From an uncultured Pseudomonadales bacterium (GTDB lineage: Bacteria > Patescibacteriota > Microgenomatia > UBA1400 > PJMF01): 58,365 nucleotides of DNA. Numbering within the stretch: position 1 is the stretch's first letter; every line of letters begins with the position of its first letter. Both the position numbers and the translations under genes were made by a program. This document shows, piece by piece, positions 53,648 through 57,110 of the stretch. Location: assembly GCA_964537665.1 (NCBI GenBank), contig CAZIBP010000002.1, forward strand, positions 1-58,365, read 5' to 3'. The notes beneath the pieces are model-generated. The model ran no database searches, was not told the origin of the DNA, and saw only the letters and a program-made list of their open reading frames with translations.

Positions 53648-53718
53648 GGGCTCGTGTGCTGGTGCGCAGGTGAATCCGTGAAATTCATTCTTAGGGGGTT
53701 CGATTCCCCTCGAGTCCA
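53648..53718 (+). tRNA. tRNA-His(GUG)-like gene with non-canonical features
   Basis: Acceptor GGGCTCG/CGAGTCC, anticodon arm TGAAT-CCGTGAA-ATTCA (anticodon GTG) and T arm GGGGG-TTCGATT-CCCCT. However, the D region is only 16 nt, position -1 is A and the discriminator is A. Confidence 0.5.
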
Positions 53719-53825
53719 CAACAATATTTGATTCAGTAGTTTGTGTAAATTACATTTGCAAAAAGAAGTAAAATTTGGTATAAAATGGGTACACGGATTC
53801 ATCCTCGGGCAACCGAGAAGAATAA

Positions 53826-53857
53826 CAAAAAGGCCACACTTCGCGAGTGGCTTTTTT
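53826..53857. terminator. Bidirectional intrinsic terminator
   Basis: GCCAC...GTGGC stem flanked by an A run (53826-53830) and a T6 run (53852-53857). It lies just downstream of the minus-strand hydrolase gene. Confidence 0.6.
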
Positions 53858-53872
53858 GTTATTAAAACACAT

Positions 53873-55012
53873 TTATTTAATCATTAGTGTTTTTGCAAAA
53901 AAATTTAAATCTTTCTGAATAGCTTCAGCCCAGTTTGGTTGTAAATTGTGATTAGCTCCAGGATATTGATGAAATTCAATTTCTATCTTCTTTTTGTCAG
54001 CTGACTCACTGCTAGCAGTAGCTCTTTTTTCATTTTCTAAGTCAACTTTGCTTAAAAATTCCTTCGTCCAGCTAATTAGAGCAGAATCATCATTATTACC
54101 ATGTTGGATTTGAATTGGTCCATTGAGACGATCTAGATGTTGGCTAATGGAAAAATCAAAGACGTCATAATCCTCTTCAAATTGGGCTAAGTATTTACGT
54201 GCTTCTTTACCTTCGTCAGCATTTTCATCTGTAAAGTAAAGGATGGAATATGGAAAGGGCGCCAGAACTGGCGCCCAAAGTGTGGTGGGCAGATTGCTGC
54301 CTAAGACTTCTAGAGTTGAAACAGCAATCTGCCCACCATTACTATGTCCCCAAAGACCAATTCTTTTTGTATCAACAGTGATCTTTTGCCCAGCCAGTTT
54401 CTCAATTTGACTTAAATCAATTTCTGGAAATTGTTGTATTGTTTTAATTAAATCGATTACGTTGACGACTTTAATAAATCTTGCTTCCCAAGTGTTGCTT
54501 GGTTCTGAATCGCTCTCACTATAGCCTAAAAAGTCTGGTGCTAAGGTCAAATAGTTATTTTCTGCCAAGACAGCGGCGGCATTTTTTGTACCCAAGCCAG
54601 AATAATAATTTTCCAGAGGAGCGAAACCTCGGAGCATAATAACAGTAGCTTTATTTTCTTTACTGGCGGTTATTTGTAAATTAAGTGCTCCAGAAATGTT
54701 CTTGCCTTGACTTATGTAGGTAAAAAGCAAAACGTAACTGTTGTTGGCCAAATTTTGGCTGAGTATTTTTTTGACTTTGATTGGTTGCTGGGCACTAAAC
54801 TCTTTTTTGGCTAAATTCGTTATTGAGTATTGCAGCAATGGTAAAGTTTTAGTTTGTTCCGCAGTAATTTTGGGTTTAAGCAGAGGGATGTCATTCAAGT
54901 TCTCTTTTTTAATTTGCAAATAGGCTAGAACAAATGAGACAAAACTATTTAAGATTAAAACGAGAACAATGAAAAATATTTTTTTTGACATTTTTTTATT
55001 ATCTACAATCAT
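53873..55012 (-). CDS. Membrane-anchored alpha/beta hydrolase (S9/dienelactone-hydrolase-like)
   Basis: N-terminal TM anchor, nucleophile elbow GLWGHSNGG and a C-terminal His in GANHNL. Confidence 0.75.
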   Translation of the reverse strand: MIVDNKKMSKKIFFIVLVLILNSFVSFVLAYLQIKKENLNDIPLLKPKITAEQTKTLPLLQYSITNLAKKEFSAQQPIKVKKILSQNLANNSYVLLFTYISQGKNISGALNLQITASKENKATVIMLRGFAPLENYYSGLGTKNAAAVLAENNYLTLAPDFLGYSESDSEPSNTWEARFIKVVNVIDLIKTIQQFPEIDLSQIEKLAGQKITVDTKRIGLWGHSNGGQIAVSTLEVLGSNLPTTLWAPVLAPFPYSILYFTDENADEGKEARKYLAQFEEDYDVFDFSISQHLDRLNGPIQIQHGNNDDSALISWTKEFLSKVDLENEKRATASSESADKKKIEIEFHQYPGANHNLQPNWAEAIQKDLNFFAKTLMIK

Positions 55013-55099
55013 ACCTAAATGGGGCTTGTTTTCCAGGCTTTTATTTTTACAATATCATCCTATATCTTTATATATCAATGATTTAAGGAGTAAAAGCCA

Positions 55100-55300
55100 A
55101 TGGAACGCACTCCGACTCGTACAGCAGTTGAAAAATTCACCGATGAAGAGGGGGTTGCGCGCTATGGTATTTTTGCTTGGTTGGATTGTATCCTCAAATC
55201 TCAGAAGCGTCATGATAGTAGTCGCAATGAGAGAAGAAGGCAAGAAAGTCAGAAAGCGGAAAGAAAAAAAGAGAGATTTAAATCTGAAGATGAAGATTGA
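55100..55300 (+). CDS. Hypothetical 66-aa protein with a highly charged C-terminal tail
   Basis: SD aaggag (55085-55090) lies 9 nt upstream. Candidate promoter TTTACA-N17-TATATA at 55046-55074. Locally elevated G+C. Confidence 0.45.
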   Translation: MERTPTRTAVEKFTDEEGVARYGIFAWLDCILKSQKRHDSSRNERRRQESQKAERKKERFKSEDED

Positions 55301-55509
55301 CATAATAAAAAGGATTGATATAATCTGCCATTAACCAAGTTTTCCTCAACTATTTTCAGGAAAATTTTCAAAGAACATTAAAAAACAAATTTTTCTCCTC
55401 AGTTTTTAATTTTTTAGTTTTTATTTTTTGAAAATTGAAGAGACCCTTTGTGGCTCAGACGCTTGCGTCTGAGTTTCGAAGGGAATAACGAAGAAAGGAG
55501 GATTGCATT

Positions 55510-55602
55510 ATGAGCGTTTGCGCTAAATGTGGCCAAAACCACAAGACGAAGAAATGCCCCAATGCTTTGGTGGCTTTCTTCAAACGCATCTTCGGCGTGT
55601 AA
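55510..55602 (+). CDS. Hypothetical 30-aa mini-protein with a CCHC knuckle-like motif (MSVCAKCGQNHKTKKCPNALVAFFKRIFGV)
   Basis: Strong SD aaaggagg (55494-55501) lies 8 nt upstream. An 11-bp-stem terminator starts 18 nt after the stop. This ORF is not in the supplied ORF track because it is too short. Confidence 0.4.
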   Translation: MSVCAKCGQNHKTKKCPNALVAFFKRIFGV

Positions 55603-55619
55603 CTCCACCTTCACCATCT

Positions 55620-55654
55620 GTCTCCGGCCCTTACGGGCCGGAGACAATCTTTTT
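55620..55654 (+). terminator. Intrinsic terminator
   Basis: GTCTCCGGCCC-ttac-GGGCCGGAGAC followed by aatcttttt. Confidence 0.75.
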
Positions 55655-55712
55655 AATTTGTTTTAAATTCCTCTACCTTTCTCCTCATTCCTCTCCTATA
55701 ATAGCGATCGTT

Positions 55713-57110
55713 ATGCAAAGAACCCTCGTCCTTGAATCACTTCAAAAAATTGGCCAGACCGTTACTTTATGTGGCTGGGTCGATAGCAAACGCGATCATG
55801 GTAAGGTTACCTTCATTGATTTGCGCGATCGTACTGGCAAAATTCAAGCTGTTGGCATTGGTGGAAAACTTAGTGAGTTGACCACTGAGTCAGTCATTGA
55901 AATCACTGGCCAGATTAATGCTCGCAATGAAAAATCTATCAATCCAAATTTACCAACTGGTAGTATCGAAATTTTTGTTGAGGCTTATAAAGTACTAAAC
56001 AAAGCTAGTGAGTTACCGATTTTGGTGGAAGGTGATGGTTTAGATGTTAACGAAGAAATGCGTTTGAAGTATCGTTATTTGGATTTGCGTCGAGCTAGAA
56101 TGCAAAAAATTGTGCGTTTACGTTCTAAATTTTATCAAGCATTACGTGAGCAACTTGAGAAAAAAGATTTTGTAGAGGTTGAAACTCCCATGTTGACCAA
56201 GTCAACCAAAGAAGGGGCTCGTGATTTTATTGTGCCTTCTCGTTTTAATCCTGGTAAATTTTATGCGCTACCTCAGAGTCCTCAGCAATACAAACAATTA
56301 CTGATGACTGCGGGTGTAGAGAATTATTATCAATTTGCTCGCTGTATTCGTGATGAGGATTTGCGAGCTGATCGTGGTTTTGAATTTACTCAACTTGATT
56401 TGGAAATGAGTTTTGTCACCCAAGAAGAAGTTATGGCTAATGTTGAAGACATTGTCAAAAATGCGGTCAAAAAAGTTGGTGGTAAATTACAGCAAGAGAC
56501 TTTTCCAGTGATTCAATATCAAGATGCTTTGGCTAAATATGGAGCTGATAAGTTTGATTTGCGCTCTCAGGAAGAGAAAGAAGCTGGGGTTTTGGCTTTT
56601 GCTTGGGTAGTTAATTTTCCATTCTTTAAAAAAGTTGACAAAAAAGATGTAGCTGAGGTTCGTGACGGTAAGAGTGGTTGGACTTTTACTCACAACCCAT
56701 TTTCTAGTCCTGTACCAGAATCGGCGCAAGATCATAAAAATGCCACCAACATTGAGAATATTATCACTGCTCAATATGATTTGGTTTGTAATGGTTATGA
56801 AGCTGGTGGAGGTAGCATTCGTGCCCATCAACCAGAGGTTTTGGAGCAAACCTTCAAGATCATGGGCTATTCACTCGAAGAAATTCAAAATAGCGTTGGC
56901 CACATGCTGGAAGCCTTTAAATTGGGGACTCCTCCACATGGAGGCATTGCTTTGGGTTTAGATCGCTTGGTGATGCTTCTTGCTGGAGAAAATTCCATCA
57001 AGGAAACCATTGCTTTCCCGATGACTTCCAGTGGCAAAACTGCCATTATGGATGCACCAAGTGAGGTTACAAGCGAACAACTTAAAGAGTTGGGGATTAG
57101 AATTGCTTGA
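55713..57110 (+). CDS. aspS: Aspartyl-tRNA synthetase, bacterial type lacking the GAD insertion domain
   Basis: OB-fold N-terminus (LCGWVDSKRDHGKVTFIDLRDRTG), motif 2 FARCIRDEDLRADRGFEFTQLDLEMSF and motif 3 GGIALGLDRLVML. Start at ATG 55713, 10 nt after TATAAT 55697-55702. The ORF-track extension from 55527 is rejected. Confidence 0.9.
   Translation: MQRTLVLESLQKIGQTVTLCGWVDSKRDHGKVTFIDLRDRTGKIQAVGIGGKLSELTTESVIEITGQINARNEKSINPNLPTGSIEIFVEAYKVLNKASELPILVEGDGLDVNEEMRLKYRYLDLRRARMQKIVRLRSKFYQALREQLEKKDFVEVETPMLTKSTKEGARDFIVPSRFNPGKFYALPQSPQQYKQLLMTAGVENYYQFARCIRDEDLRADRGFEFTQLDLEMSFVTQEEVMANVEDIVKNAVKKVGGKLQQETFPVIQYQDALAKYGADKFDLRSQEEKEAGVLAFAWVVNFPFFKKVDKKDVAEVRDGKSGWTFTHNPFSSPVPESAQDHKNATNIENIITAQYDLVCNGYEAGGGSIRAHQPEVLEQTFKIMGYSLEEIQNSVGHMLEAFKLGTPPHGGIALGLDRLVMLLAGENSIKETIAFPMTSSGKTAIMDAPSEVTSEQLKELGIRIA

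Follow-up and report, generated by a model that had tools for sequence, protein, structure and literature searches.

The window, i.e. the whole stretch of 58,365 nucleotides analysed here, belongs to an ultra-small, Pacebacteria-like bacterium with a genome of 0.98 Mb. Directly 5' of aspS, positions 55013-55712 contain two short open reading frames, and the question raised by this locus is whether these are genes and, if so, whether they belong together. Direct reading of the sequence confirmed both ORFs and their SD sequences as placed by a first-pass annotation (Table 1). Both frames represent real genes, as demonstrated by homologues in other genera for the 66-aa frame and by a conserved core under purifying selection for the 30-aa frame. 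As previously noted, neither protein belongs to a named family according to searches of Pfam, NCBIfam, and libraries of defence and phage proteins. The proposal that the two form a functional or regulator pair was not supported: several genera possess the 66-aa gene, its surroundings there being unrelated, and it adjoins the second gene in only 3 of the 15 genomes of the genus, the remaining cassettes of the genus standing without it. We favour, with some reserve, the reading that the interval comprises two independent small genes, the second being a translationally locked cassette for a zinc-knuckle, nucleic-acid-binding mini-protein. What is new is this mini-gene, absent from all annotation, with its folded leader RNA. 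Such unannotated knuckle genes reside in genomes of less than 1 Mb, in which each retained gene is presumably useful.

Table 1. Features of the interval 5' of aspS (positions refer to the window).
Feature	Position	Strand	Remarks
P1, promoter-like TTTACA-N17-TATATA	55046-55074	+	direct reading; did not reach the consensus-scan threshold; putative promoter of the 66-aa gene
SD of the 66-aa gene, AAGGAG	55085-55090	+	9 nt 5' of ATG
66-aa orphan gene	55100-55300	+	homologues, profile family, invariant columns, helical model
P2, TTGACA-16-TGnTATAAT	55297-55324	+	12/12 consensus match
H0, A+U-rich leader hairpin	55394-55443	+	predicted in 13/14 cassettes; arm sequences differ
H1, leader hairpin	55444-55483	+	covariance model R1; compensatory changes
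Strong SD of the 30-aa ORF, AAAGGAGG	55494-55501	+	8 nt 5' of ATG
30-aa mini-gene	55510-55602	+	putative zinc-knuckle core (codons 55519-55560) and predicted 13-residue amphipathic C-terminal helix
Anti-SD-like CUCC-A-CCUUC	55603-55612	+	immediately 3' of the stop codon; predicted pairing with the SD (MFE, partition function)
Intrinsic terminator, 12-pair stem (9 G-C), 4-nt loop, then AUCUUUUUAA	55619-55656	+	
TATAAT	55697-55702	+	10 nt 5' of the aspS ATG (55713), no SD; the cassette slot ends here

The interval had also been described as elevated in G+C and as a possible single acquired module. The elevation is confined to positions 55426-55660, which span the leader hairpin, the terminator, and all that lies between, and where G+C reaches 46.8% and ranks within the top 2% among windows of equal size. 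It does not apply to positions 55013-55712 as a whole, with a G+C content of 38.1% compared to 35.6% in the window, a level equally high in 22% of all 700-bp windows, and a single G+C-rich module is not supported by a value so little above that of the window. The 125 nt separating promoter P2 from the hairpins contain only 22% G+C. Horizontal transfer from a G+C-rich donor was considered, and the G+C profile gave no indication of it.

The first relatives of the 30-aa mini-gene were spotted as plain ATG ORFs 5' of aspS in sister genomes. Knuckle mini-ORFs occur in eight genomes, this one (G000) and 7 of 14 sister genomes, and are located 150-660 nt 5' of aspS. The motif C-x2-C-x3-H-x4-C noticed earlier was confirmed (C4, C7, H11, and C16), and the core C-x2-C-G-x2-H-x4-C-P is the only invariant part of the peptides. 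All six invariant core residues show synonymous third-base changes, with TGY, GGN, CAY, and CCN codons in phase, indicating that within the mini-protein it is the Cys-Cys-His-Cys unit on which selection has acted. A search of 140 family genomes for the codon pattern of the core yielded eight matches 5' of aspS, one elsewhere, and none in the reversed control; since this search required the six core codons, the method itself accounts in part for the invariance of the core. Evidence independent of the pattern search comes from position, frame, signals, and dN/dS. The first-pass annotation had proposed a check for coding conservation, and dN/dS between this genome and the closest member (G123) is 0.22; in all eight mini-ORF pairs compared, pS exceeds pN. 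Start and stop codons, a terminator, and a GGAGG-type SD accompany every knuckle ORF. The peptides include one of 34 residues (G121); at an AspRS identity of 88%, they are 60% identical. All eight knuckle peptides are missing from a set of 15 billion predicted proteins, and paralogues of either the 30-aa or the 66-aa peptide were not detected elsewhere in the genome. The core-pattern match in G014, a genome from outside the genus, falls within an unrelated frame of 57 codons, and roughly one such match was expected by chance. In tblastn, the 30-mer gave weak matches to G017 and G069, which represent other genera; these were regarded as noise.

The product of the 30-aa ORF would be a single Cys2-His-Cys knuckle fused to a short amphipathic helix. 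An AlphaFold2 model of moderate confidence (pLDDT 70.5) displays the knuckle and a helix at residues 19-28. The most likely role of the peptide is to bind a single zinc ion and, by analogy with other knuckles, to contact nucleic acid, presumably RNA. It shares with the CCHC knuckles of retroviral nucleocapsid and Lin28 (PF00098) the same Cys-Cys-His-Cys ligands within 13-14 residues, the Gly after the second Cys, and the basic surroundings. However, canonical zf-CCHC spacing is C-x2-C-x4-H-x4-C, while all eight mini-proteins have C-x2-C-x3-H-x4-C, one residue fewer before the His. PF00098 was not listed for five members even at E-values up to 10, and none of the profiles available for named zinc-finger families reached its threshold. 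Foldseek matched the 30-mer model to a Lin28A knuckle only, with an rmsd of 1.0 across 17 residues and an insignificant E-value of 9.7. Among solved structures, the best sequence match was the zinc site of eIF3g (E = 0.011; PF12353, yeast chains), in which the spacing C-x2-C-G-x2-H-x4-C-P is identical, including the trailing Pro. The PF12353 profile, which has a cut-off of 24.4 bits, scored 15.1 and 11.5 bits, and the domain context of eIF3g is missing, the knuckle here being the whole protein of 30-37 aa without any other domain. A language model likewise gave zf-CCHC and eIF3g as leads, and a search of 1.84 billion proteins identified multi-knuckle metagenomic proteins repeating C-x2-C-G-G-x-H-x4-C-P. 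The likeness to PF00098 and eIF3g is probably convergent.

A single knuckle as an entire protein in a bacterium is unlike the known CCHC proteins; at 30-50 residues it would be among the smallest of its kind and a handy model for metal-dependent folding. Haloarchaea possess one-domain zinc-finger micro-proteins (HVO_ families) of a few dozen residues with CPxCG half-sites, most of them unannotated or orphan. The knuckle mini-proteins resemble these in standing alone and in a CPxCG-like half-site. In contrast, the haloarchaeal proteins belong to another domain of life and have two CPxCG pairs (C4) instead of a CCHC site, and we know of no shared leader RNA for them. Profile comparison gave no significant match to these families (HVO_B0008_N, E = 0.047; HVO_0416, E = 0.54).

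Positions 55297-55656 form a self-contained cassette, in which a consensus promoter is followed by a leader of about 180 nt ending in the hairpins H0 and H1, the SD, the 30-codon ORF, the anti-SD, and the terminator. TGaTATAAT at 55316-55324, listed before as a candidate promoter element, is the -10 region of a promoter matching the consensus at 12 of 12 positions, and the -35 hexamer TTGACA (55297-55302) overlaps the TGA stop codon of the 66-aa ORF. The terminator reported after the 30-aa ORF was confirmed as well, with a stem of 12 pairs at 55619-55646 preceding a T-run.

The 3' arm of H0 corresponds to a conserved UUGAAArUUrAGG element in the leader alignment, and its end abuts the start of H1. 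In H1, a U-U 1x1 internal loop separates an outer helix of 7 bp (CCCUUUG/CGAAGGG) from an inner helix of 10 bp, which is capped by a 4-nt loop. Covariation of this hairpin was demonstrated on 18 distinct sequences, in which 11 of 16 pairs show compensatory changes and 94% of the cells are paired. The covariance model R1 scored 74.3 bits for H1 here, its sole match in the 0.98-Mb genome. Within the genus it gave 14 matches in 10 of 15 genomes, every one beside aspS, and none was obtained in 125 other genomes of the family. One match among 146 other genomes of the order (G178, another family) is a terminator-like hairpin and was judged to be due to chance. A search of two collections for the H1 pattern added 10 further contigs, and aspS followed just 3' in all five metagenome contigs examined. 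The leader was found in one genus only and only beside aspS. It represents a new, covariation-supported RNA. Rfam covariance models identified no T-box, riboswitch, known leader, or sRNA in 55300-55700, the sole match being a minus-strand TD-2 at E = 2, far under the gathering score; tRNA and tmRNA genes were not found in the interval either. The lipoprotein leader near 34.5 kb gave no R1 match with filters off, and kinship with the H0-H1 leader was not recovered.

A GGAGG-type SD is present in every cassette. The cassette unit of this genome folds with z = -9.4, and the finished mRNA most likely adopts a fold in which the SD is covered by the anti-SD. This would confine translation to a co-transcriptional window or make it dependent on an opening event. 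The SD is predicted to be paired in 14 of 14 cassettes, with a mean probability of being unpaired of 0.07 compared to 0.25 in 55 control genes; pairing in silico is common in the controls too, 33% of which have values below 0.1. The pairing partner is located between -4 and +25 nt relative to the stop codon in all 14 cassettes, and CTCC or CCTC occurs near the stop in 12 of 14, compared to 7.9% of 644 long ORFs, counts that are not independent across cassettes since these are homologous. The predicted closure of the SD by the anti-SD represents a testable translational lock.

The cassette is one variant of a genus-specific, fast-diversifying slot 5' of aspS, in which the same leader would drive exchangeable micro-ORFs encoding CCHC knuckles, C4 ribbons, or poly-basic peptides. 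Other cassettes of the slot do encode C4 ribbons or poly-basic peptides in place of the knuckle. The slot peptides comprise 15-50 aa and are extremely basic; some have a single putative zinc site, and others lack Cys. The cassettes have been duplicated in tandem, diversify rapidly, and are patchily distributed even among closely related genomes; 4 of the 15 genus genomes have none, the closest relative among them. At 68 aspS loci outside the genus (identity of 74% or less), no comparable mini-ORFs were found. As peptides in other cassettes lack a metal site, what is functionally constant in the slot could be the leader and not the peptide. A further-reaching interpretation, which we consider unlikely, is that the slot serves as a nursery of micro-genes: one conserved RNA chassis (BoxA/promoter, H0-H1, locked SD, and terminator) would be duplicated and put to use again for new, interchangeable RNA-binding micro-proteins of the CCHC, C4, and poly-basic kinds, the knuckle feeding back on its own leader via GGAG-rich or hairpin elements. 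If this were true, it would constitute a bacterial, convergent counterpart of the RNA recognition by Lin28 and nucleocapsid knuckles. The exchange of knuckle, ribbon, and poly-basic ORFs on a single chassis offers a clear view of the birth, duplication, and loss of small genes in bacteria of the candidate phyla radiation (CPR).

The TATAAT preceding aspS is probably the promoter of a leaderless aspS mRNA. It is kept 10-11 nt 5' of the ATG in genus genomes with and without cassettes, and genome-wide TAnAAT shows a peak 11-15 nt 5' of ATG codons. This observation bears on a different explanation of the locus, namely that the mini-ORF is a cis-acting leader-peptide attenuator of aspS, in which translation or the nascent metal-binding peptide sets termination or read-through, with BoxA antitermination helping in sister genomes. 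Attenuators of amino-acid and synthetase operons (pheST type) also have a short ORF and a terminator directly 5' of the synthetase gene, the cassettes are always located directly 5' of aspS and on the same strand, and the succession of ORF and terminator is typical. As the anti-SD often lies within the 5' arm of the terminator, SD occupancy could influence terminator folding. In addition, a BoxA-pattern 11-mer occurs 40-91 nt 5' of the leader in 8 of 10 first cassettes of the genus, four of these 11-mers (GATC-type) being identical to a BoxA-like element in the 16S leader of the genome studied here, which also contains nusB. We nevertheless consider an attenuator unlikely. The plus, i.e. transcribed, strand of the cassette in this genome has no BoxA 11-mer, and aspS keeps its own TATAAT whether or not a cassette is present, including in the closest relative. 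The cassette likewise has its own promoter and leader hairpins, unlike a pheST-type attenuator. Cognate codons are not enriched, the 30-aa peptide having no Asp codon and two Asn codons, and the peptide is under purifying selection, tail included. Finally, the terminators are strong ones, for which an alternative antiterminator could not be identified.

The second alternative, which appears quite unlikely, is that the peptide is harmful when over-produced, similar to a type I toxin, with long-range sequestration of the SD holding the mRNA translationally inert. In hok/sok and aapA1/IsoA1, a tiny ORF lies on a very stable mRNA with its SD sequestered by a distant 3' element, and such systems occur in tandem copies and are patchily spread. 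The cassette seems to have similar traits to the hok and aapA1 mRNAs: a tiny ORF with a strong promoter, a hyper-structured mRNA, an SD paired in silico with a 3' element in all cassettes, tandem duplication with rapid diversification and patchy presence, and the amphipathic tail of the peptide encoded here. A conserved antisense promoter or an antitoxin RNA gene like those of type I systems was not detected in the window or in three sister cassettes, minus-strand promoter-like sites being limited to a single weak one (9/12) in the window and none in the sister cassettes. The slot peptides are also mostly basic and hydrophilic instead of being membrane helices. The tail of the 30-mer has a hydrophobic moment of 0.47, but its longest hydrophobic stretch covers only 13 residues and carries K and R. 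Among the eight knuckle members, a hydrophobic tail of this length occurs in two only and a hydrophobic N-terminus in two others; the remaining four members are hydrophilic and basic without a membrane segment, and the same applies to every ribbon and poly-basic peptide. The earlier suggestion of a membrane-active toxin is not supported as a function of the family, and no match was obtained in defence or phage libraries.

We regard it as distinctly improbable that the peptides serve the ribosome or nucleoid as lineage-specific accessory proteins, in zinc-binding and zinc-free forms, with the leader hairpins as an autoregulatory site. Tiny ribosomal proteins have C+ and C- paralogues, and the slot peptides recall them in their size, basicity, and alternation of zinc-site and Cys-free forms in one slot. 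Owing to its U-U and tandem G-U feature, the conserved hairpin might serve as the binding site of a protein, and a weak profile similarity exists to the zinc sites of uS14 type Z and uL24. However, the peptides evolve far faster than ribosomal proteins, as is apparent from their divergence relative to AspRS, and the cassette is missing from 4 of the 15 genus genomes. Upon testing of NCBIfam ribosomal-protein profiles, including bL36, bL32, bL33, and uS14 type Z, the best match was to uS14 type Z at 13.1 bits against a cut-off of 77, with none for the peptide of the window. That the unit is a structured non-coding RNA with a fortuitous 30-codon frame is highly improbable, for although the structure is very strong, hairpins inside the 'ORF' of the poly-basic cassettes show compensatory changes that come with amino-acid changes, and the eight knuckle peptides were never called as genes, the in-phase codon conservation with synonymous variation, the excess of pS over pN, the SD and start codon at the right spacing in every member, and the varying length of the open frames all point to translation.

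The first gene of the interval, encoding the 66-aa protein, is a further conserved orphan. The sequence TTTACA-N17-TATATA had been listed as a candidate promoter and is indeed present (P1). Homologues with 43-62% identity occur in six other genomes representing five genera. In a word-index search, the single sequence retrieved only itself, and a profile of eight sequences was required to obtain the family, which comprises at least 34 members of 59-88 aa (E-values of 1e-13 to 1e-30). Searches of Pfam, NCBIfam, PADLOC, and solved structures gave no match for the protein, and in PHROG only an insignificant match to a family of unknown function was found (E = 0.007). The AlphaFold2 model is all helical and confident (pLDDT 83.6); Foldseek returned nothing for it, VIA-align gave only long-helix matches with Z of 4.5 or less, and a language-model atlas provided no usable match. 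The few named members of the family are all 'hypothetical' Pacebacteria proteins. In the protein, a small helical N-terminal part precedes the H-D-S-x-R motif, and the C-terminus is a long, charged helix with a basic tail; the family alignment revealed invariant E11, G23, K33, D39, and R42 along with near-invariant H38 and S40.

We read the cassette upstream of aspS, which comprises a promoter, the leader hairpins H0 and H1, a Shine-Dalgarno site (SD), a 30-aa mini-ORF, an anti-SD and a terminator, as an autonomous mini-gene that is held under a predicted translational lock and encodes a putative nucleic-acid-binding zinc-knuckle peptide. The genes, the order of the parts, the RNA covariation and the distribution are established by the analysis; the lock and the binding of metal and RNA are inferences. 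The 30-aa ORF was found as described in the first-pass annotation, with an SD (AAAGGAGG) at a gap of 8 nt and the reported Cys/His spacing. At the syntenic locus of the related genome G062, a 31-codon ORF retains the Cys/His core, with the hydrophobic part located N-terminally instead, and further members became visible when the ATG ORFs preceding aspS in the genomes of the genus were simply listed, before any pattern was applied. A codon pattern for the core, C-x2-C-G-x2-H-x4-C-P, gave nine matches in 140 family genomes, and the reversed control gave none. Eight matches fell into genus g1 (15 genomes, the source genome G000 included), all on the aspS strand and 150–660 nt upstream of the gene; the ninth, in G014, is unrelated. 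All eight mini-ORFs begin with ATG or GTG behind a GGAGG-type SD and end in a stop codon, and each has a terminator. In the alignment of the eight peptides, including a 34-residue member (G121), only M1, C4, C7, G8, H11, C16 and P17 are invariant. At every one of the six core residues codon bases 1 and 2 are fixed and the third is variable, an invariance that is partly due to the construction of the search pattern. Independently of that construction, pS exceeded pN in all eight pairs compared, and dN/dS between G000 and G123 was 0.22 with the tail included. The 30-aa ORF is coding. The eight peptides are absent from a collection of 15 billion proteins.

The peptide had been assigned to no recognised family, and indeed no Pfam or NCBIfam model passed. 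Its top sequence match among solved structures was the zinc site of eIF3g (E 0.011), identical in spacing and likewise flanked by Gly and Pro. A profile search, run exhaustively against 1.84 billion representatives, yielded only multi-knuckle proteins repeating the knuckle unit and no single-knuckle minis. The metagenomic proteins P0003–P0057 (62–1337 aa) carry the unit C-x2-C-G-G-x-H-x4-C-P 2–16 times. The AlphaFold2 model (pLDDT 70.5) displays a knuckle followed by a helix at residues 19–28; its sole Foldseek match was a Lin28A knuckle, with an insignificant E-value, and the atlas leads, zf-CCHC and eIF3g, stayed below 0.9. We infer that the peptide acts in the manner of CCHC knuckles and would bind metal and RNA. 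Membership in PF00098 is not demonstrable because the spacing deviates from that of the family and the profile does not recover the peptide.

The predicted -10 element turned out to be part of a perfect promoter (TTGACA-16-TG-extended TATAAT); its -35 and the stop codon at the end of the 66-aa ORF overlap. H1 lies within a 66-nt stretch that stops about 20 nt short of the start codon and comprises 16 pairs, with 94% of cells paired among 18 distinct sequences. Compensatory changes occurred at 11 of the 16 pairs, doubly changed cells numbered 47 versus 10.8 in shuffles, and the covariation collapsed in slid controls; the larger H1 alignment was fitted to the model, a procedure biased towards structure. 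For H0, 13 of the 14 cassettes gave a prediction, and the arm sequences differ among them. The predicted fold of the unit at 55426-55660 reached -102.9 kcal/mol (z = -9.4), and 220-nt gene starts used as control averaged -46.6. Pairing of the SD core is predicted for every one of the 14 cassettes, with a mean probability of being unpaired of 0.07 versus 0.25 in 55 control genes, and would lock translation of the mini-gene mRNA. The predicted partner, a CCUC/CUCC-type element, lies between -4 and +25 nt relative to the stop codon. Such an element occurs close to the stop codon in 12 of the 14 cassettes versus 7.9% of 644 long ORFs, although, as the cassettes are homologous, this anti-SD represents one conserved trait rather than 14 independent events. 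In knuckle members with basic tails the last two or three codons constitute the anti-SD, which accounts for their common Ser or Pro-Ser ends. The terminator was present as annotated. Cassette terminators share the stem CCUCCGRCC...GGYCGGAGG followed by AAAUC and a T-run, so that the 5' arm is itself an anti-SD and the 3' arm an SD-like GGAGG; these arms could couple SD occupancy to termination.

Features of the aspS upstream region and of related loci (window positions unless a locus is named)
Feature	Position or size	Remarks
tRNA-His(GTG) gene	53648-53719	
Promoter-plus-terminator unit	53796-53894	beside tRNA-His(GTG)
66-aa ORF	55100-55300	
-10 element	55316-55324	
Minus-strand GTTCTTTGAAA	55366-55376	
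H0	55394-55443	A+U-rich hairpin, abuts H1; 3' arm is the conserved flank UUGAAArUUrAGG
H1	55444-55483	conserved hairpin
30-aa ORF	55510-55602	
Region with the shared terminator stem	55603-55646	also in sister terminators
Terminator stem	55619-55646	12 pairs, then T-run
TATAAT-to-ATG stretch of aspS	55697-55715	TATAAT 10 nt before ATG; no SD
Replacement element, ~150 nt	L147:2100-2275	in the complete sister genome; likewise L027, L030, L031, L035, upstream of cassettes
CCHC knuckles		variants: basic tails, hydrophobic N-termini, amphipathic C-tails (G000 and G123)
C4 ribbons (zinc ribbons)	27-33 aa	driven by cassette leader
Lys-rich peptides	15-18 aa	driven by cassette leader
Basic peptides	24-26 aa	driven by cassette leader
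Non-knuckle micro-ORF loci	L056-L060, L144, L145, L028:1300-1440	

The covariance model of the leader, R1, matched once in G000 and 14 times in the genus (10 of 15 genomes), each time beside aspS, and had no match in 125 other family genomes; a single match among 146 further genomes from the order was spurious. R1 did not recover a kinship between the cassette leader and the lipoprotein leader near 34.5 kb. Searching with the H1 pattern retrieved five metagenome contigs and five genome contigs, and in each of the five metagenome contigs, which were examined for this, aspS follows closely. One leader drives several kinds of micro-ORF, and tandem pairs of cassettes occur in several genomes. In G124 the product is a basic peptide with a TTG start and a divergent leader. 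Internal hairpins of the 24–26-aa basic peptides covary even though this alters amino acids, and the G128 copy has a frameshift in a poly-A run. Four genomes of the genus lack a cassette, among them the nearest relative as measured by AspRS (96% identity), in which a methyltransferase gene abuts aspS. Upstream regions of aspS outside the genus contain no comparable mini-ORFs.

A less likely reading is an attenuator of aspS. In its favor, sister genomes carry a BoxA-pattern 11-mer 40–91 nt before the leader, identical in four of them to the BoxA-like element of the G000 16S leader, and nusB is present. However, aspS has its own TATAAT, without an SD, which is kept with or without cassettes and fits a genome-wide TAnAAT peak 11–15 nt before start codons (87 before the ATG of long ORFs versus a background of ~10). 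As SD-like motifs before long ORFs are only ~3-fold enriched, leaderless mRNAs seem, from these motif counts, to be common in G000. A toxin-like role of the cassette and a ribosome-accessory role of its peptides are further alternatives to the locked mini-gene that we favor. The 16S leader of G000 (contig C16) contains GATCTTTAACAA ~140 nt before the rRNA, and, genus-wide, 8 of 10 first cassettes have the BoxA-pattern 11-mer ahead of their leader (L048-L055, upstream of R1). On the plus strand of the G000 cassette no BoxA was found, and the consensus promoter sits at its position. GTTCTTTGAAA on the minus strand, at a distance equivalent to that of the sister BoxA, could have arisen by a small inversion or be coincidental; sites of this kind number ~40 per genome.

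The neighboring 66-aa ORF was likewise present as annotated, with the SD AAGGAG at a gap of 9 nt, and the proposed tblastn search detected intact frames in six other genomes of five genera at 43–62% identity. Homologs in other genera reside in neighborhoods unrelated to aspS, and within the genus the gene adjoins the cassette in just three genomes (G000, G062, G124). A profile from eight sequences identified 34 relatives of 59–88 aa, none with a Pfam domain; the few named members are 'hypothetical' Pacebacteria proteins. M1, E11, G23, K33, D39 and R42 are invariant in a 29-sequence alignment, and R7, H38, S40 and R45 nearly so, resulting in an H-D-S-x-R motif. The AlphaFold2 model (pLDDT 83.6) has three short helices followed by a long charged helix (38–65). 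Pfam, NCBIfam, PADLOC, PHROGs, solved structures, Foldseek and the atlas gave nothing informative, and VIA-align returned generic long helices only (Z 4.5 or less). The gene is a real, conserved orphan; that its basic helix contacts nucleic acid or the ribosome is only a guess. Several homologs of other genera also display the TATAAT-then-ATG arrangement. In sister genomes a conserved ~150-nt element takes the place of the gene. This candidate attenuator or sRNA contains a hydrophobic ORF of 21–28 codons together with a terminator made of a G+C hairpin and a T-run, and Phe/Trp leader models match it weakly (E 0.15).

The genome comprises 56 contigs (0.98 Mb), the window being contig 2. AspRS relatives, one of them a complete genome of 853 kb from the same genus, originate from groundwater and freshwater metagenomes and are labeled Candidatus Pacebacteria, Candidatus Microgenomatus or Patescibacteria. 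Rfam matches of the promoter-plus-terminator unit beside the tRNA gene were all sub-threshold (rimP leader, 29 bits vs 47). The 700 bp upstream of aspS, previously described as a G+C-elevated insert, are only mildly elevated (38.1% vs 35.6%), a level equally high in 22% of same-size windows. The rise is limited to the 66-aa ORF (41.8%) and the segment that runs from the hairpin to the terminator (46.8%, in the top 2%), and the 125 nt between these two parts have 22% G+C.
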